Shown: positions 1 through 22,700, counted from the stretch's first letter. The stretch: 25,908 nucleotides of DNA from Chthonomonas calidirosea (GCA_945859975.1 CAMAPH010000040.1:1-25908); one strand, 5' to 3'. Numbers and translations are program-made. The notes: generated by a model from the letters alone, not told the origin.

Positions 1-509
1 CCGATTTTCAAGACACGCTGAACATTGTCCGGATAAATCTCAACTCGCGCCGTAAGCGAATTTGTCCGGTCTTGAGACATCCAATCGACGCCGTTTGGCA
101 GCGAAGTTGGCTGCCAGCCATCCTCCCCGTTTCGCCAAAGCTCCAAAAACAGATCACGTGCCGGCCGCATGCTTTCAAAATTGATGGTCGCAGCTTGGCT
201 AAGAACCTGCCGCGACGCAATGGCAGCAGCCAACGTTTCGCGCGGCGAACGATACGGACTGTCCAGCAGAACTTGGGCCGAGACATCGCCAACCTCCACT
301 TCTTTTCGGAGGCTGCTACCATTTGGAAGAAGGGCTTGAACGGAGTAGGTGCCCGGTCGGAGATCCTCGACGTCCAAATACCCGGACTGAGGGATGGCGG
401 CAGTGATCGGAACTCGCTGGACCGTGCGATCCAGGTGAGTTAGAGTTACCGGCACCACCGGCTGAGGAAAACTGCTTCCTAAATCGAGCCTAATCGATAG
501 CCGGGCCAT
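1..509 (-). CDS. Hypothetical protein, third gene of the hydrolase-caspase operon; 3' end lies outside the window; beta-rich N-terminal domain (carboxypeptidase-regulatory/PEGA-like)
   Basis: Not in the ORF track. ATG at 509-507 overlaps the caspase TGA (TGATG). Manual translation is open for 169 codons to the window edge: MARLSIRLDLGSSFPQPVVPVTLTHLDRTVQRVPITAAIPQSGYLDVEDLRPGTYSVQALLPNGSSLRKEVEVGDVSAQVLLDSPYRSPRETLAAA... The 'G-Y-L-x-V-x-x-L-x-P-G-x-Y-x-V' pattern is typical of small beta-sandwich domains (inference). Confidence 0.85.
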   Translation of the reverse strand, partial: MARLSIRLDLGSSFPQPVVPVTLTHLDRTVQRVPITAAIPQSGYLDVEDLRPGTYSVQALLPNGSSLRKEVEVGDVSAQVLLDSPYRSPRETLAAAIASRQVLSQAATINFESMRPARDLFLELWRNGEDGWQPTSLPNGVDWMSQDRTNSLTARVEIYPDNVQRVLKI

Positions 510-1609
510 CAGAAATCCTCCAGAAGAAGTACAGGTGGCTTCGCGTGGCAGGATTTCCAGTCCGGGCTACCGGGACGCTGAACGTCAATTGGCCCGACCG
601 GGGCCGAGAAGGTCACCGGTTCGTCGTCGCCAACAAACCGCCCCAGCCCCTTCGCCTCAATTCCCACTTTTGGACCGGGCGAGGTGGCCTCGAAGAACAC
701 TTTTGCGAAAGCTTTTGGCTCCTTGACGTTGACGAGCGACTGTTCCCAGACCGTCTCACCTCCGACCTCAAAAATCGCGGGAAGCTTTTGTCGTCGATGT
801 GGATTTCCGACCGCCTTTACCGCGGCACCGAGCGAATCAACCGTGACTTGCCATCGGTTGCCGACCTCGGTCGCGGCGTAGTGGTTGAGACAATCGAGCA
901 AGACTTCACAGAACCGGGTCTCCGCATTCACCGTCCCCTCCGCAGTTTGATTGAGCGTCGCGGCGCGAATGACCGGCACGTTCTTGCCGCTGATCAGCAA
1001 GGGGCGCGCCGTAAGTAGGGTGCTCAATCCCTGACGCGGAATGTCCATATAAGATTTCGGCACGTTCCGGCAGGCATCCACCAGATACACCTGGGTCATC
1101 GCCTCGTTCGCCCCCATGGACCGCTTGAACTGCTCGAAGTTCACGGAGTTTCGCCAGAACTCTTCCTCAATGTCACCGAAGTCTTGGAGAAGCAGGATGC
1201 TTTCACTCGTGCTCGGGTCGGAGACGCCGTGCCCGCAGAAGTAGAAGATCGCGACGTTGTCGGCGTTCTGATTGCAAAGGTCCGACCAGGCTCTGGCGGC
1301 GGCTTTGACTTCTGCGAGAGTCGCTCCGCCGGTAACTTTCCCGGTGGGGTCGTTGCCGATTAAGAGTTGCACCGTTCCGAGCGGGACTTCAAGTCGATCT
1401 TGATTGGCAATGAACCAATCTGCCACCGCCCGAGCGGAAGGTTGTGGTGACGTCAATCGGTTCATGATTGGCGTCTCCTTGTGGTACTTCCCTTTCAATG
1501 CAGCGGGCATCGTTTCCTTGGGCTTTGGCATGAAGAAGTAGTCCCCCACGCCGATGCAGAGGACATGAACTGCCGCCGAAGCGCCAAGATCGCCGTCGAA
1601 AACAAGCAT
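509..1609 (-). CDS. Caspase-like cysteine protease (peptidase C14 family)
   Basis: N-terminal 'HVLCIGVGDY' strand; catalytic His in FYFCGHG (H127, codon 1229-1231); catalytic Cys in YLVDACR (C180, codon 1070-1072); later 'TRFCEVLLDCL' helix typical of prokaryotic C14 proteins. ATG overlaps the upstream TGA. Confidence 0.92.
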   Translation of the reverse strand: MLVFDGDLGASAAVHVLCIGVGDYFFMPKPKETMPAALKGKYHKETPIMNRLTSPQPSARAVADWFIANQDRLEVPLGTVQLLIGNDPTGKVTGGATLAEVKAAARAWSDLCNQNADNVAIFYFCGHGVSDPSTSESILLLQDFGDIEEEFWRNSVNFEQFKRSMGANEAMTQVYLVDACRNVPKSYMDIPRQGLSTLLTARPLLISGKNVPVIRAATLNQTAEGTVNAETRFCEVLLDCLNHYAATEVGNRWQVTVDSLGAAVKAVGNPHRRQKLPAIFEVGGETVWEQSLVNVKEPKAFAKVFFEATSPGPKVGIEAKGLGRFVGDDEPVTFSAPVGPIDVQRPGSPDWKSCHAKPPVLLLEDF

Positions 1610-2802
1610 CAGATGACCTTAAACTCTTGCAGACGGACCTTCAGGCGGGTGTAGTAGCTCGGCAAGCCGAAGTACAGATTGTGGGCATTGATCAACGAGC
1701 CGCCAGTGTTGAACTGGAAGTCGTGGGCTCCTTCTAGCATGGGTTCCAATCTAAATCCGAGCGGGTCGGCGAAGTCGTACGAGTTGAGCCAAACGCCGAA
1801 GTTGTTCGGCTTTGCGGTCTTTGCCGGTGGCACGACGCTCAACTTTTGTCCGTAGACATCGAGCTCCATGAAGAGGCCTACCTGGGTCCCTCCGGTGACT
1901 ACGGCATCGGCGAAGAAGCCCGCTGGCAGCAGGTCTCGGTGGTGGGTCAGGATGTCCCAGATGACCGTTCCGCCGAAGCTGTGGCCGACAAGCACCAGCT
2001 TTTCGCCGTTCTTTTGAGCTTCATTCCACGCCGCCGTAATGTCGGTCAAGGCGATTTTTGTGATCTCGTTGGGGGCGTTTGCCGCTCCACGAGAGTTGAG
2101 ATACACGAAGGCATCACCGATAAACTTCGCCGCACCAACGGTCATGGCGCTCTTTGTCTTCAGCATGAACTTGTCCGAAACGCGATCGATGACGCTGCCG
2201 ACGGCTTTCTTAAACCCATCGGAGATTTTGCTGAGAAAGTCGAAGGCACCCAGGCTCTCTTTGATCTTTTCCGTTTCCCGTTGTTGCTGGAAGGCGTTGA
2301 CTTGGGGCAATAATTCATCGATAAGTTCGGCGTCCGTGTTGACCGAGTCCAACCAAGTCCAGTCGCCTTCTTTGGCGTACTCGGACAGAATCTTGACCGC
2401 TTCCCCGTAAGATTCCTCGCTATCGTTTTCGGATTGATCCATCCCGCTCACGATGAGGTCGATCAGTTGCTCTTTTCCGCTCAGTTCGCTCCCGTCCGTC
2501 GCGGGTTTGCGAGCAATGGTCAGGAGTTGATTCCCCTTTAACCCAGACTTTGCAGAAGGGTCGCCCAGGACTTCGAGAGTTTTTTCTTCGCCCAGCGTTT
2601 CGGCACCTTCTGCGGTGGGTACGCAGGCCCCGTTGTAACGCAACCGCCCGCCGTGGTCACCCCAGTACGGATTTCGAACCTTGGCTTTGCCATCAAAGGT
2701 GATTTTCGAAAGCAGTTGAGACCGGTTCGCAACATCTCGCTCAAACGCAGTCCCATCTCCTTCCTTACGATTCGCAACTCCATGGACAAAAACAACTTGC
2801 AT
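1609..2802 (-). CDS. Alpha/beta-hydrolase (lipase/esterase-like) with a large acidic insert
   Basis: VVFVHG oxyanion motif, GHSFG nucleophile elbow, putative acid in YDFADPL and His in AHNLYF. Start placed at ATG 2802 (397 aa) because TAGAAT lies 7 nt upstream; the ORF track uses 2838. Confidence 0.88.
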   Translation of the reverse strand: MQVVFVHGVANRKEGDGTAFERDVANRSQLLSKITFDGKAKVRNPYWGDHGGRLRYNGACVPTAEGAETLGEEKTLEVLGDPSAKSGLKGNQLLTIARKPATDGSELSGKEQLIDLIVSGMDQSENDSEESYGEAVKILSEYAKEGDWTWLDSVNTDAELIDELLPQVNAFQQQRETEKIKESLGAFDFLSKISDGFKKAVGSVIDRVSDKFMLKTKSAMTVGAAKFIGDAFVYLNSRGAANAPNEITKIALTDITAAWNEAQKNGEKLVLVGHSFGGTVIWDILTHHRDLLPAGFFADAVVTGGTQVGLFMELDVYGQKLSVVPPAKTAKPNNFGVWLNSYDFADPLGFRLEPMLEGAHDFQFNTGGSLINAHNLYFGLPSYYTRLKVRLQEFKVI

Positions 2803-2809
2803 CTTCTGC

Positions 2810-2815
2810 ATTCTA
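2810..2815 (-). promoter_or_regulatory. -10 element (TAGAAT) of a probable leaderless promoter for the hydrolase-caspase operon
   Basis: Minus strand reads ggtTAGAATgcagaagATG; no Shine-Dalgarno sequence before the ATG. Confidence 0.6.
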
Positions 2816-2867
2816 ACCCGGTCGTGCTCGGATGGCAATGATTCTGCCGGGTAACTTTTCCGGAGTT

Positions 2868-7965: not shown

Positions 7966-10440
7966 TTAAAGATTAGGTTCGATAACTGGCTCGACCTTTC
8001 CTTTTTGCGATCGAATGTAGGCGTAACCACCGCCGAGCATCGCCAGTCCGAGACCAGTGAGCATTAGCACTCGGATGATTGGGTCCTGGGCTTCCCAGAT
8101 CACTCGGAAAAGCACCCCGACCGTCGTTACGCCAAAGACCGCTATGCCTCCGAGGCGCAGGGTTCGATCGTCAGACCGGAATCCTATCGCGAGCAGAATC
8201 ACGGCGAAGCCTGCTCGCAATCCGACCGTCACCCACTCCGGGCTGAGGCTGACCGACCACGCCTTAGCGAGGCTCTCCAGCAGGAACCAAGTGATCGCGA
8301 TGCCGGCGTAGACGGAGAGGGACCCATCCGCGCCCTTAGACTTGCGCAGCCAGCTACCGGTGACGTAACTTGCCGCTGAGATCAGCACGATTTGAAGCCC
8401 AACCGAAGCGGGCGACCAAGTAACGCCGGTGGTAACGCTGAACATAAAGACACTTGCCGCTCCGAACAGCCAGCCCAGAATCGCGCCCCCTTGGAACTTA
8501 GTGAACGCCAGGGTGACCGATCCAATGAGGGAAACCGTCGCGAGCGAGTAGACGATGCTTACGCTCGTCGAGAGGTTAAGGCGGTTCGTAAACACAAGGG
8601 TCAACAGTTGTGTGACCGTCCCTGCAGCCGCAAGGCCGTACAGGTTCAAGATGATCTCTCGAGACTGCGCATGATCCTTCTCCGAGGCTCGCTGAAGGGT
8701 GACGAAGGCAAGAACCGGTGCCGCGACGAGTGTGCTAACTAGGATTGCGTACCGCAAGGTCGCGGGCACGGCCACGTCGCCAAGGCCGAGGTAAAGCACG
8801 CTGGCGAGGACCCAGATCATGACGCTGACCACAACGGCAACCGCCGACCGCTTTCCAAGCGCTACCCCGGCGAGGATCGCAAAGCAGGGCCAAGCGACGA
8901 GCAGGGCCGGAAGTGCGAGATTGAGTTCGCCGTACGGAAGCATCACCCAACGCGAAAGGATGATGAAAAGCAGACCGAGGGTGGCGAAGATCGTCGGCTC
9001 GGGGTTATCCGACTCATGAGCCGTGAACCAGCCAACCACCATCGTTGCGACGGCTAGGCTACCAAATGCCCAGGCTTGGATTTGCCAACTATCGGCATAC
9101 CGTCCCTGCAGCAACATCGCTCCGAAGGCGAGCAGCAGTTCGACGCTGGCAAACTTCAGCGCTAGGCGGCGGAAATGCCAGTGAGAAACGGCGGCCAAGG
9201 CGGCTGCCAGGCCAGCATAAACGAACACCGGCTGAATCGAGGTCAGGCTGCTTGGCGCGAAGCAGAGCGCGAGGATTCCCCCGCCGATGGCGAGCATGTC
9301 GGCACCCTTCTTCTCTCGGAAAATCCAAGCGATGGCAAGCGCAACGCCGGCCAGAACTAGTTCAACAAGTCCGTAAGACACGGTCGCTTTCGCGAAAACG
9401 AGAAAGATTCCGGTGAGAGTAAGCGCGATCGCCGGGAAGACGCCTCTCGGGTCGAACTCGGTTTTCTCGAATGTGAACAGATTGGCAAGGCACGCGATGA
9501 TGGTGTTAAGACCGATGAGGCCGATCCAGATGGGTGCGCGATCGGACTGGTAGTACGCGAGCGACAACGAAAAGGAGGTGATGAACCAGCCGAAGGTGAC
9601 AAAGCTGTTCCACTTCACCCGGACCGCCGCGAGCATAGACGGGATGACGATGGAGAAATGAAGCAAGGCGGCGGCCGTCGAGTTCTCGTTTTGCAACGGC
9701 ATGATGGAGGCTAACAGACCGCCGATAAAGCCAATGGCATGAAATGCTCGGGAGCCGATGATGAGGCTGTAGCCTAGGTTCACCAAGCTCCAGACAAAGA
9801 ACGCCGCGACCAGCACTTCACCTACAAACAGCTTGTGAAACACGTGTGCCCCGGCAAACGAAAGGTAGACGCCGCATGAGCCAAGGCCCATGAGCAACTG
9901 ACCAAAGTCCTCGCGCTCCTCGCGATGGCGATAGCCGAAGATCATGAACACGGCGCTACTGAGCAAAGCGAGCCCGAACTGAACCGCCGGCGTGAGCCAG
10001 CCGCGCTCGATGCCGATGGCAATGAAGAAACCAAGGGCCAAGATGAGGGTCAGCGCACCGGCCCAAGGGAGCACTTTCGCGCCGATGTTGTACTCGACGT
10101 CCTCTTTCGGCTTTGGTGGCGTGGCTTGGGTTGCTTGAAAGGCGCGGGGCGCGGCGATGACCGGAGGCGGGACGTTCCAGGCTGATGGTGCGGCGGCTTC
10201 TGCTGGCTCGCGGACGGTTTCCGTCTTTGGCATTGCCGGCTTCGGGGTCTCCTGCTCCGGTCGAAGGGCCGGAGGCGTGGGCGGAGGAGTCTCGCGAGCG
10301 GGAGCCACCGCCGTTCGGCCCGTCACGAGGCGCTCAAGCGAATCCATCCGCCGGGACACGGAGGCTAGCTGCCGCTCAATCTCATCAAAGCGCAATTCAG
10401 AACGCTCAGAACTGTTCACGCTTTGATTGTCGAGCTTCAT
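7966..10440 (-). CDS. DUF2339-like predicted multi-pass membrane protein
   Basis: N-terminal coiled coil, Pro/Ala-rich linker, 'VEYNIGAKVLPWAG' motif, many TM helices, C-terminal 'RVLMLTGLG...GYAY'. Possible alternative start at GTG 10419 (GACAAT 6 nt upstream). Confidence 0.85.
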   Translation of the reverse strand: MKLDNQSVNSSERSELRFDEIERQLASVSRRMDSLERLVTGRTAVAPARETPPPTPPALRPEQETPKPAMPKTETVREPAEAAAPSAWNVPPPVIAAPRAFQATQATPPKPKEDVEYNIGAKVLPWAGALTLILALGFFIAIGIERGWLTPAVQFGLALLSSAVFMIFGYRHREEREDFGQLLMGLGSCGVYLSFAGAHVFHKLFVGEVLVAAFFVWSLVNLGYSLIIGSRAFHAIGFIGGLLASIMPLQNENSTAAALLHFSIVIPSMLAAVRVKWNSFVTFGWFITSFSLSLAYYQSDRAPIWIGLIGLNTIIACLANLFTFEKTEFDPRGVFPAIALTLTGIFLVFAKATVSYGLVELVLAGVALAIAWIFREKKGADMLAIGGGILALCFAPSSLTSIQPVFVYAGLAAALAAVSHWHFRRLALKFASVELLLAFGAMLLQGRYADSWQIQAWAFGSLAVATMVVGWFTAHESDNPEPTIFATLGLLFIILSRWVMLPYGELNLALPALLVAWPCFAILAGVALGKRSAVAVVVSVMIWVLASVLYLGLGDVAVPATLRYAILVSTLVAAPVLAFVTLQRASEKDHAQSREIILNLYGLAAAGTVTQLLTLVFTNRLNLSTSVSIVYSLATVSLIGSVTLAFTKFQGGAILGWLFGAASVFMFSVTTGVTWSPASVGLQIVLISAASYVTGSWLRKSKGADGSLSVYAGIAITWFLLESLAKAWSVSLSPEWVTVGLRAGFAVILLAIGFRSDDRTLRLGGIAVFGVTTVGVLFRVIWEAQDPIIRVLMLTGLGLAMLGGGYAYIRSQKGKVEPVIEPNL

Positions 10441-20477: not shown

Positions 20478-22700
20478 ATGCCTCCGATTCGAAAGCACTG
20501 GAATCTTATCCTGTGCATTCTGCTCGGATTCATTCCCATTGCCCCGGCGCTATTCAGCGGCAGCACCATCGGAGCCTTTGACCAAATTCGGCAGATGGCA
20601 CCGTGGAACGGCGAAAAGCCAAGCGTGCCTTGGGATGTGCTTCAGGCCGATAGCGTCCTTCAGTTCTATGTCTGGCGCGACCTGGTCTTCCAAAGTTGGG
20701 GGCGGTTTGAGGTTCCGGTCTGGAATCCTTACGAGCTTGGTGGGACGCCGCTGTTGGCAAACTCTCAGTCCGGAGCGCTGTATCCGTTCCATATCCTCGT
20801 CGGGATTCTCAAAATTCCGACCGGACTCGCGATCGTTCTTTTGGCCTGGCTGCACTTGTCTCTCGCTGCTTTGGGCACGGCAAAGGCGGCGAAGGCACTT
20901 GGGGCGAACGAGTTTGGGCAGACGGTTTCGGCGGTTGGGTTCGGCACGAGCGCGTTTATGCTCGCCTGGACGGCGCTGCCGAGTGTAATCACGACCGTTT
21001 GCTGGATCCCCTGGGGCATCGCGGCGGCGTTAAGTCTTCCGAAGGATCGGCTCGACGGCTTCGCCACTCTGCGGCTGGCGGCCCCAATTGCGCTCATCCT
21101 CCTAGCTGGACATTTGCAGTTTGCGGCTTATGGTCTGGGAGCCATCGGGCTTGCTATTATTGCAAGCTTTTTCGGTCAGTCTGCCTTCACTATTGGAATG
21201 CGTGCACTGATGATCCTATCGGTTGCCCTTTTATGTAATGTATTTGCAGGCAGGCAGGTCGCGACGGTGCTCGAATACTCGCAGTTCTCGCATCGACGCG
21301 GCACTCCAACTCCAGAAGGCTACGAAGCTTACGTTTCTTCGTCGCTGAAGCCATTTCATCTCAGCGCGCTTTCGTCCCCCACCATGCTGGGAAACCCGCG
21401 AGTTGCGGGCCCCGAAGCCGCGCCGGGGATAAAGGTTTCCGAATATTGGCCGGCCATTGCCGTGCGTGGCGCTAACTACGCCGAAGGCGCGTTGACGCTG
21501 GGACCGTTGATCCTCGCCTTCCTGTTCCTTGCTAATTGGCGAGCCAAACGCACTTGGTTTGCGGCGGCATTGTGCATCGGAGCAGCCCTGATCGCGTTCG
21601 GTTCCCCGCTCAACGCTGTGCTGTACTTCAACGTGCCGGGTTGGTCCGCAACCGGTTCGCCGGGGCGCGTCATTGTGCTGTTTGTCCTCGGAGCGAGTTT
21701 GCTCGCCGGACTCGGCGCATCAAACACAGTTCAGAACTTCACGAAGAAAAGCTGGATCGGGCTCGGAGTCGTGTTGCTGTCCATCTTGCTGGTGCCGGTT
21801 CTCAATGGCACTTTCTCTCCATCGAACGTGCCCGCCGAGCTGATCAGTCAGCTAGCGGCAGCAGGCTTTATCTCTGGTGCTACCACGGCGTTACTGGGGA
21901 TTTTGCTGGTCGTCGGTTGCTTCGTGTTTCTCCAGATGTCAGATGAGAAGAAGAAAACCCACGGGGCGCTTGGCCTCGTGACCGTCTTTGGCATCGCATG
22001 GCTTCTGTCCTTCAACCCGATCATGTTTGGCAAGCCGCTCGAATCCCCCGCGCAGCCAGCCAAAACCCGGGTCGCGGTTATAAACAACGACTGGGATTTG
22101 TTGACAGCAGCACGGGCGATCCTCCCTCCCAACACGGCAACCATGCTTCGGCAACCGGAACTCGGCGGATACGACTCGCTTCTGCACCGCGACACCGTGG
22201 GGATGCTGAATGACATCAACGGCCAAGATTCGCCTCCACCGGCGAACGGCAACATGATGTTCATCAAGGACAGCTTCGACCCGAGGAAAGCAGCCGATGC
22301 GGGCGTGACCGAGGTGTGGAGCCGCAATCCGCTTGCCTCGATGACCGGCGATCCCGTTCAACGGGATGGCTACTACGTTTATAAGATTGATGGACCTGGT
22401 TTGGCCGACGTGGATGGCAAGCAGGTGGAGATCGCCGAGCTGTCGCCCTCCGGCATACGCATCGTTGCCCCGCCCGGCGGAAAGTTGACCGTCCGGTTCC
22501 GCAACATCGGTCAGTGGACCAGTAACCTTGGCGAACCGCGGAAGGACACTCGTTGGCTAGAGTACGAACTGGAGCACAACACTCCCGAGGTGTTTATTCG
22601 TCCAAAGGGATTAGAAATTGGAATTAATTTTAATAACCTTTTCTCACTCTTTTTCTTTGTTTTCTTCTTCTGGAGAAGACCGGGAGCGAAACCCGAATGA
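20478..22700 (+). CDS. YfhO-like multi-pass membrane protein (putative GT-C glycosyltransferase)
   Basis: 'PVWNPYELGGTPLLANSQSGALYPF', 'LLAGHLQF', 'GGYDSL', many TMs and a C-terminal TM anchor. Confidence 0.75.
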   Translation: MPPIRKHWNLILCILLGFIPIAPALFSGSTIGAFDQIRQMAPWNGEKPSVPWDVLQADSVLQFYVWRDLVFQSWGRFEVPVWNPYELGGTPLLANSQSGALYPFHILVGILKIPTGLAIVLLAWLHLSLAALGTAKAAKALGANEFGQTVSAVGFGTSAFMLAWTALPSVITTVCWIPWGIAAALSLPKDRLDGFATLRLAAPIALILLAGHLQFAAYGLGAIGLAIIASFFGQSAFTIGMRALMILSVALLCNVFAGRQVATVLEYSQFSHRRGTPTPEGYEAYVSSSLKPFHLSALSSPTMLGNPRVAGPEAAPGIKVSEYWPAIAVRGANYAEGALTLGPLILAFLFLANWRAKRTWFAAALCIGAALIAFGSPLNAVLYFNVPGWSATGSPGRVIVLFVLGASLLAGLGASNTVQNFTKKSWIGLGVVLLSILLVPVLNGTFSPSNVPAELISQLAAAGFISGATTALLGILLVVGCFVFLQMSDEKKKTHGALGLVTVFGIAWLLSFNPIMFGKPLESPAQPAKTRVAVINNDWDLLTAARAILPPNTATMLRQPELGGYDSLLHRDTVGMLNDINGQDSPPPANGNMMFIKDSFDPRKAADAGVTEVWSRNPLASMTGDPVQRDGYYVYKIDGPGLADVDGKQVEIAELSPSGIRIVAPPGGKLTVRFRNIGQWTSNLGEPRKDTRWLEYELEHNTPEVFIRPKGLEIGINFNNLFSLFFFVFFFWRRPGAKPE

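Follow-up and report, generated by a model that had tools for sequence, protein, structure and literature searches.

Two conserved and co-varying motifs suggest activation by double cleavage of a caspase-linked alpha/beta hydrolase in Chthonomonas calidirosea

Gene organization of the locus

The DNA analysed here, called the window, is a stretch of 25,908 nucleotides from Chthonomonas calidirosea (GCA_945859975.1, CAMAPH010000040.1:1-25908) and constitutes the beginning of contig C40 of its assembly. It carries a cassette of three genes on the minus strand, in which the stop and start codons of successive genes overlap by one base:

1609..2802, minus strand: alpha/beta-hydrolase gene, 397 aa from the ATG at 2802, product beginning with MQVVFVHG
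509..1609, minus strand: caspase-like protease gene, 366 aa, whose final base doubles as the start of the third gene
3..509, minus strand: third gene, N-terminal 169 aa of a protein of about 453 aa, running off the contig

The TGA stop codon of the hydrolase (1609-1611) has one base in common with the ATG of the caspase-like gene. In the list of open reading frames the hydrolase is entered as 1609..2838, with a TTG start and 409 aa, and the ATG at 2802 lies inside this frame; this TTG at 2838 and an ATG at 2811 (400 aa) are the alternative starts. A protein 96% identical to the window hydrolase (P0001) is 400 aa long, matching the start at 2811. The third gene can be followed beyond the window, as the final 149 bases of contig C9 match window bases 1-149 exactly and the gene goes on in that contig. 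A locus 94% identical to this one (L004) carries these three genes without interruption, and the third occupies positions 8294-9655 there, encoding 453 aa. The genes around the cassette in the window are of housekeeping types and no defence island is found there, a setting that does not favor the interpretation proposed below.

Predicted cleavage sites and fragments of the hydrolase

A first inspection of this DNA, referred to here as the sequence-only reading, had located three E-x-L-G motifs in the hydrolase, around an acidic segment of about 114 aa that separates the HG strand from the catalytic core, and had predicted from them the cleavage of a zymogen at two sites. The coordinates of the three motifs were confirmed on the minus-strand sequence, the acidic segment lies where it had been placed, and residue numbering from the start at 2802 returns the same fragment sizes:

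2590..2601, minus strand: site 1, ETLG (E68-T69-L70-G71), predicted scissile bond between L70 and G71
2563..2574, minus strand: middle motif, EVLG (residues 77-80), retained in close relatives only
2248..2259, minus strand: site 2, ESLG (E182-S183-L184-G185), predicted scissile bond between L184 and G185
2593..2802, minus strand: predicted N fragment (residues 1-70), comprising a first strand that bears the HG oxyanion motif, and a PYWGD motif
2251..2592, minus strand: middle fragment predicted to be excised, 114 aa (residues 71-184), of acidic composition and mainly helical in the model
1612..2250, minus strand: predicted C fragment, residues 185-397, catalytic core

Cuts after L70 and L184 would release fragments of 70, 114 and 213 aa (7.7, 12.5 and 23.3 kDa), with Asp plus Glu contents of 11.4%, 21.9% and 9.4%, respectively. 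The HG motif of the N fragment consists of H7 (codon 2782-2784) and G8, and this fragment also contains a helix (18-35) and a strand (41-43) in the structural model. Downstream of the acidic segment, the C fragment carries the GHSFGG nucleophile elbow with S275 (1978-1980), as well as D343 (1774-1776), D346 (1765-1767) and H374 (1681-1683). When the hydrolase sequence was shuffled 100,000 times, the E-x-L-G pattern was obtained 0.26 times on average and at least three copies with P = 0.0018.

Fold of the hydrolase and location of the sites

Pfam matches to the hydrolase are weak, the best being Abhydrolase_6 with 20.3 bits for a cut-off of 26.3, and every Abhydrolase score is below its threshold. 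PADLOC and NCBIfam returned no match for the hydrolase or for the third protein. The hydrolase has a GxSxG nucleophile elbow (GHSFGG) and a Ser/Asp/His triad (S275/D346/H374), and residues H274, S275, G277, D346 and H374 are invariant across 64 hydrolase sequences, in which H7, G8 and D343 are likewise fully or almost fully conserved. An AlphaFold2 model built from these 64 sequences (pLDDT 85.2, pTM 0.76) gives the protein a lipase-like alpha/beta fold. Its core was superimposed with VIA-align on the minimal lipase LipA of B. subtilis (1i6w), with 164 of 179 residues aligned (Z 13.8, rmsd 2.9), as well as on the DDHD domain of Nir2 (9jyx; Z 14.3, 226 residues aligned). No structure matched the core better than these two, both of which differ from the window hydrolase in having neither an excisable insert nor a protease partner. 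The Pfam DDHD family (PF02862) is matched by 7 of the 64 family members, with a best E value of 3e-7, and the window hydrolase itself gives no match to it. A sequence search of the PDB with the family profile yielded designed helical repeats and matches to the nucleophile elbow, and no solved relative.

Both outer sites lie in loops. Site 1 falls within a long coil (residues 44-91), where the pLDDT drops from an average of 74 over residues 61-70 to 43 over residues 71-80; site 2 is found in the loop connecting helix 157-178 to helix 186-205, and the pLDDT falls below 50 at residues 180-183. Each is thus a low-pLDDT coil beside confident helices, which bears out the location that the sequence-only reading had foreseen. 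The insert is predicted with moderate confidence to be folded and helical (block-mean pLDDT 67-94 over residues 91-180), its helices spanning residues 92-97, 109-120, 129-145 and 157-178. A 1:1 complex of the caspase and the hydrolase, predicted with alignments, scored 0.04 for a mark of 0.32, a value that counts neither for nor against an interaction.

Conservation of the two sites

When 1.84 billion cluster representatives were searched with a profile, 5304 of them were retrieved at E <= 1e-3, 1956 at 1e-10 and 702 at 1e-30. The window hydrolase was aligned with the best 150 profile matches, which are representatives of 50%-identity clusters (n=151). In this alignment, both outer sites share the consensus E-[AST]-[FL]-G, whose four residues are designated P3, P2, P1 and P1'. 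Position P1 is occupied at site 1 by Phe (75), Leu (64), Tyr (7) or Met (3) in 149 of the 151 sequences, and at site 2 by Phe (68), Leu (61), Tyr (16) or Met (3) in 148. Arg is absent from both P1 columns, in which the nine commonest residues account for all 151 sequences. Gly is found at P1' in 135 (site 1) and 138 (site 2) sequences, and Ala, Ser or Thr at P2 in 107 and 110. Position P3 holds Glu in 96 and Gln in 14 sequences at site 1, for 100 and 12 at site 2; the retention of this Glu in just 96 to 100 of 151 counts against the predicted cleavage. A separate set of 73 sequences, taken from fetched loci, gave a similar picture overall, with a looser P1' at site 1 (Gly 37, Ser 23, Ala 6, Asn 4) and a more variable P3 among the proteobacterial members.

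The middle motif behaves differently from the outer two. Its Glu is kept at P3 in 20 and its Gly at P1' in 23 of the 151 sequences, and EVLG as such is retained solely in the proteins 96% and 66% identical to the window hydrolase. As it is not conserved, this motif is probably incidental. Within the protein, conservation is lowest in the sequence separating the outer sites: the column average is 0.59 at the sites, 0.49 in both flanks and 0.31 in the insert (n=151), which is so rich in insertions and deletions that 291 alignment columns correspond to the 114 residues of the window copy. The length of the insert ranges from 86 to 154 aa among the 151 homologues, with a median of 111. Its charge is preserved: the insert bears a net negative charge in 149 of the 151 sequences, and its acidity exceeds that of either flank in 135 of the 151. 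The pattern anticipated for cleavage motifs, namely constant E-x-L-G copies around a variable insert, is therefore observed for the outer two copies and fails for EVLG.

Co-variation of the two sites

The two outer sites do not vary independently. The same residue occupies P1 at both sites in 119 of the 151 sequences, for a mean of 60.4 after shuffling, and this number was reached by none of 5000 shuffles. In terms of site 1-site 2 pairs, Phe-Phe (60) and Leu-Leu (55) dominate over the mixed combinations Phe-Leu (2) and Leu-Phe (5). A comparable agreement exists at P3: in 104 of 151 sequences the two sites have the same residue there, for a mean of 65.6 after shuffling, and none of 5000 shuffles attains the observed number. 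Kinship among the representatives causes these shuffles to overstate their independence, a bias that control columns with the same kinship offset only partly: the mutual information between the P1 columns is 0.70 bit, versus 0.07-0.38 bit for ten other Phe/Leu/Tyr-variable columns paired with either site. Since the same four-residue word is present in two loops 114 residues apart and changes jointly in both of them, these alignments point to one shared reader as the best explanation. An examination of 31 caspases and 23 third proteins revealed no conserved motif of this kind.

The caspase-like protease and its linkage to the hydrolase

The partner expected by the sequence-only reading is encoded by the next gene of the cassette. 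Its product matches the Pfam family Peptidase_C14 (PF00656) with 25.5 bits for a cut-off of 21.4, as well as the PADLOC "caspase" model (E 2e-8), and residues H127, G128, D178 and C180 are invariant in 31 caspase sequences. H127 (codon 1229-1231) and C180 (codon 1070-1072) constitute the predicted catalytic dyad. In metacaspases, the aspartate of the D-x-C motif contributes to the binding of a basic P1 residue. The invariant D178, which occupies this place in the protease, would fit poorly with a hydrophobic P1.

This gene association is widespread. With the window caspase as query, a caspase homologue was detected downstream and on the same strand in 57 of the 64 loci containing a hydrolase relative, distributed among Armatimonadota, Alpha-, Beta- and Gammaproteobacteria, Actinomycetota and others. 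Among the seven loci in which this query found no match, L009 and L040 are located at contig ends and L030 and L047 contain a partial hydrolase match; the remaining ones are L036, L048 and L060, and the record of the latter (also L137) did match a caspase with a wider query set. The cassette was also found on plasmids, in 15 matching records of which 8 are typed as conjugative, and conjugative rhizobial plasmids are among the carriers of the clade. On pNGR234a, its genes are annotated as hypothetical protein, caspase family protein and hypothetical protein, and the cassette adjoins an IS21 element and a RES-family gene. Only three of 40 relatives of the window genome gave a match at E <= 1e-10, one alone being full length and strong; the cassette is therefore sporadic.

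In none of the 19 homologues whose 4-kb flanks gave no match to the caspase queries does a hydrophobic residue followed by Gly occupy both aligned sites. Another clade of 16 sequences, also linked to caspases, carries words of its own: [ST]-x-L-[LI]-G-[QM]-G at site 1, with G-x-G in 15 of the 16, and G-L-[AV]-G-M-G at site 2, with [GA]-[MQL]-G in all 16. Counts of motif classes against caspase adjacency by regular expressions were set aside, the rules for adjacency and P3 being overly strict and the result noisy.

The third protein gave no match to Pfam in the local library. Its model (pLDDT 65.5) has two domains of the beta-sandwich type and, after them, a helical one, and a Foldseek search with this model returned generic beta-sandwich matches only. 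The protein Atlas places it near clusters bearing Y4kD_C (PF27295) with a feature score of 0.97, which is a lead only. Among 19 relatives of the third protein, 10 have a C-terminal pYEATS domain, a type of domain reportedly described by Kaur et al.; the window copy does not have it.

Comparison with known systems

The closest precedent is found in Lysobacter capsici AZ78. According to the accessible text of Evans et al. (bioRxiv 2025.11.14.688446; PMC12642450), LcCaspase cuts LcHydrolase at Arg73 and Arg117, and the R-G junction is conserved in 161 LcHydrolase homologues. With the purified pair, LcHydrolase fragments of 8.1, 4.7 and 19.8 kDa are reported; the N and C fragments are jointly toxic and their exact junctions are needed for this effect. 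The principle of a hydrolase zymogen cut twice by a caspase-like protease is thus already published since 2025 (Evans et al., PMC12642450).

A locus from a Luteimonas metagenome-assembled genome (L148), found by means of a short back-translated motif, stands in for the Lysobacter pair in the present comparisons. In this locus, a gene for a caspase-like protein of 607 aa overlaps the start of the gene for a 295-aa hydrolase, which resembles LcHydrolase as printed in Table S1 and has R-G at the matching places. Profile comparison with hhalign relates the window hydrolase family (A2) to the L148 hydrolase with a probability of 98.75% (E 1.5e-16, 163 columns), and the caspase profile (A3) to the L148 caspase with 95.8%. 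The pairwise identity between the window hydrolase and its L148 relative is only about 22% by BLASTP, an alignment that places E-T-L-G of the window on I-V-R-G of L148, and consequently L70-G71 on the Arg-Gly at the published Arg73 position. The correspondence is looser at site 2. There, hhalign aligns Q-N-W-G of L148 with ESLG and leaves the L148 R-G six residues upstream, so that this alignment does not support an identical position for the two second sites; the W-G of L148 is moreover W-R in LcHydrolase (Table S1), which makes the register of the site 2 linker uncertain.

The Lysobacter and window systems have in common the neighbouring hydrolase and caspase genes, two sites (predicted ones in the window) with Gly at P1', a small HG-bearing N fragment (73 aa in LcHydrolase, 70 aa predicted in the window), an acidic middle fragment and a catalytic core contained in the C fragment. 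They differ first by their P1 code, which is Arg in LcHydrolase and Leu, Phe, Tyr or Met, without Arg, in the window clade. The middle fragment is 44 aa long in LcHydrolase, whereas it reaches 114 aa and is predicted to be folded in the window hydrolase. The gene order is caspase then hydrolase in the Luteimonas locus and hydrolase then caspase in the window. The window caspase, with 366 aa, does not possess the long C-terminal region of the Lysobacter type (594-607 aa), and a separate third gene is present in the window cassette. The possibility that the third protein is this C-terminal domain in a detached form was rejected on the basis of a profile comparison (probability 0.15%); BLASTP between the third protein and the long Lysobacter-type caspase gave a single match of 49 aa (E 2e-4). 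The hydrophobic P1 code, the larger plug that is predicted to be folded, the reversed gene order and the separate third protein are what distinguishes the window system from the published one. Homologues of about 300 aa of the Terrabacter/Humibacillus type were also considered as possible Lysobacter-type hydrolases, and were rejected since they contain no insert and none of their 31 loci matched the caspase queries; one such locus (L068) has a HAD hydrolase and a sigma factor as neighbours.

Two other classes of activated effectors offer partial parallels. In the VcMBL/VcAvs2 and AtMBL/AtAvs4 pairs, also treated in the accessible text of Evans et al. (PMC12642450), a zymogen is cut twice at copies of one short motif, between Ile and Ser, with an essential P1, and cleavage in the MBL case is quicker at one of the two sites. 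The window hydrolase resembles these zymogens by its two sites sharing one short motif and by its hydrophobic P1. It differs from them in that they are MBL-fold DNases, cut by the trypsin-like domain of a STAND sensor, and need each of their three fragments for activity. The gasdermin precedent invoked in the sequence-only reading proved correct, as the Runella bGSDM is cut after Leu247 at P1 and requires Gly at P1' (Johnson et al., bioRxiv 2021.06.07.447441, accessible text). It shares with the window hydrolase a non-polar Leu at P1, a Gly at P1' and the liberation of an autoinhibited death effector through a caspase-like cut, the last being a prediction in the window; it differs by being a pore-forming gasdermin, by a single cut that sheds a C-terminal peptide and by a CHAT protease borne on a Roc-COR protein. 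The protease of the window has an alpha/beta-hydrolase gene as neighbour and not a gasdermin gene, so that the likeness is limited to the Leu-Gly junction.

The pairing itself has been noticed in another context. In the part of their article that could be consulted, Kaur et al. 2020 (PMC7159879) state that the caspase-superfamily domains of conflict systems always adjoin an alpha/beta-hydrolase gene. The same pairing is present in the window, but those systems are built on vWA-MoxR or GTPase cores, and no core gene of these types was found beside the cassette in the window, in its C9 continuation or in L004. Literature searches that took in the text of Evans et al. short of its supplement, where a hydrolase tree may be given, brought up no description of a hydrophobic P1 in a caspase-linked hydrolase.

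Proposed mechanism and alternative explanations

On the basis of these comparisons, the following mechanism can be proposed. The hydrolase would be made as an inactive zymogen with a minimal lipase-type alpha/beta fold, in which the acidic helical insert of 114 aa would come after the second core strand and ahead of the helix leading to the nucleophile strand. Once activated, probably with the involvement of the third protein, the caspase-like protease (His127/Cys180) would cut after Leu70 and Leu184, in the two copies of E-[AST]-[FL]-G. Both cuts would free the acidic plug, and the 7.7-kDa N fragment, with its oxyanion HG strand, would remain paired with the 23.3-kDa C fragment, which bears Ser275/Asp346/His374, to form the active enzyme. 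This enzyme would damage the cell by acting on a substrate that is possibly a lipid or a phospholipid, and the cassette may in this manner take part in phage defence. The inhibitory role of the insert and the two-chain nature of the active enzyme are proposed by analogy with the Lysobacter pair. Conserved and co-varying sites, their position in loops, the linkage to a caspase-like gene and the homology to the hydrolase studied by Evans et al. all support the two-site cleavage of a zymogen predicted by the sequence-only reading, and activation of the hydrolase by the protease through two cuts is considered likely. The exact bonds, L70-G71 and L184-G185, are proposed with somewhat less assurance, the assignment of P1 within the motif being itself made by analogy.

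The caspase could conceivably process the hydrolase in another way, by cutting after the Glu or the Gly, at a single site, or at EVLG as well in this lineage. Such a variant draws on the analogical assignment of P1, on the retention of EVLG in the closest relatives and on the unequal speed at which the two sites of the published MBL zymogen are cut (accessible text of PMC12642450). The hydrophobic residue and the Gly are however the most conserved positions of the motif (149/148 and 135/138 of 151 at sites 1 and 2, versus 96/100 for Glu), the L-G of site 1 is aligned with the R-G of the Luteimonas relative, and EVLG is not conserved family-wide. Processing of these other kinds is thereby rendered unlikely.

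The motifs could also be structural, serving a lid domain as hinges or as helix caps, for instance, in which case the protein would be an ordinary lipase opened at an interface or by a ligand and the caspase would act elsewhere. Lid-forming inserts are frequent in lipases. The predicted folded and helical state of the insert (block-mean pLDDT 67-94 over residues 91-180) would suit a lid, as would the hhalign alignment of ESLG with the Q-N-W-G of L148 instead of its R-G. This last match is however not conserved, the W-G being W-R in LcHydrolase (Table S1). A structural role leaves unexplained the presence of the same four-residue consensus in two separate loops, as well as a co-variation of P1 and P3 far above that of other hydrophobic columns, and homologues without a caspase match in their flanks lack the motifs. 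For these reasons, an ordinary lid is regarded as quite improbable.

A linkage maintained for some other purpose, such as regulation or modification of the protease or of the third protein by the hydrolase without any proteolytic activation, finds room in the lack of an assigned function for the third protein and of an assigned substrate and phenotype for the clade, but is very improbable, as the homologous pair that was tested works as a protease followed by its effector (PMC12642450, accessible text) and as the paired motifs reside in the hydrolase and are absent from the other two proteins.

Wider implications

Activation through two cuts, if it does occur in this family, would extend the concept of two-cut hydrolase zymogens to caspase-like proteases cutting after Leu or Phe, in a clade that comprises 702 cluster representatives at E <= 1e-30, several phyla and conjugative rhizobial plasmids. 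The Leu-Gly specificity known from the Runella gasdermin would then be tied to a second class of effectors, and the natural Phe-type and Leu-type pairs would provide material for the study of S1-pocket specificity in bacterial caspases. The two sites constitute precise predictions, testable by mutagenesis and by expression of the split enzyme. The DDHD- and lipase-like core hints at membrane lipids as the substrate.

A broader hypothesis can be advanced tentatively, as a possibility that falls somewhat short of being favored. The hydrolase may be a scaffold equipped with interchangeable cleavage codes, specific to each clade, each written twice and co-evolving with its protease. Such codes would insulate co-resident modules from one another, and the trigger would be a separate Y4kD-like protein in place of a sensor fused to the caspase. 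Three codes are visible at present, namely R-G in the Lysobacter type, E-[AST]-[FL]-G in the window clade and L-x-G-[MQ]-G in the third caspase-linked clade. The window clade is itself further divided, in a nearly exclusive manner, into Phe-type and Leu-type pairs.

Linker motifs and hydrolase architecture

The caspase-linked hydrolases of about 410-440 aa constitute a sister clade (16 aligned loci among L102-L142, a series of loci fetched from other genomes). In the hydrolases of these 16 loci, both linker sites carry the word L-x-G-[MQ]-G, unlike the window-type consensus E-[AST]-[FL]-G, and this difference at the two sites suggests that the predicted cleavage codes are clade-specific. The acidic insert is absent from the hydrolase homologues of about 300 aa found in Terrabacter, Humibacillus and Intrasporangium (L068-L098), and no caspase-like gene was detected within 4 kb of them (0/31 loci). 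At L068, the neighbours of the short homologue are a HAD hydrolase gene and one encoding a sigma-70/DUF6596 protein. A tandem arrangement of two hydrolase genes (332-1510 and 1627-2811), preceding a single caspase-like gene, can be observed in a Mycobacteriales MAG (L006).

The third gene and its contig break

An assembly break between the window contig and contig C9 of the same assembly interrupts the cassette's third gene. These contigs probably abut, since window positions 1-149 are identical to the final 149 bases of C9 (L003, G000:C9, 15450-15598). Past the break, C9 carries large DUF1592-like and DUF1552-like genes and uvrB. A pYEATS domain (PF20305) forms the C-terminal end of 10 of the 19 third-gene products in alignment A6 (L045, L052-L054, L056, L058, L062 and others); the third protein of the window's lineage is devoid of it.

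Other observations

Two long ORFs elsewhere in the window gave zero Pfam matches at E <= 1e-5:

20478-22700, plus strand, long ORF of 740 aa
24600-25829, minus strand, long ORF of 409 aa

The three-gene cassette is also carried by the symbiotic plasmid pNGR234a of Sinorhizobium fredii NGR234 (L149, NC_000914.2, 376354-380347), where an IS21-family element and a gene for a RES-family NAD+ phosphorylase lie alongside it.
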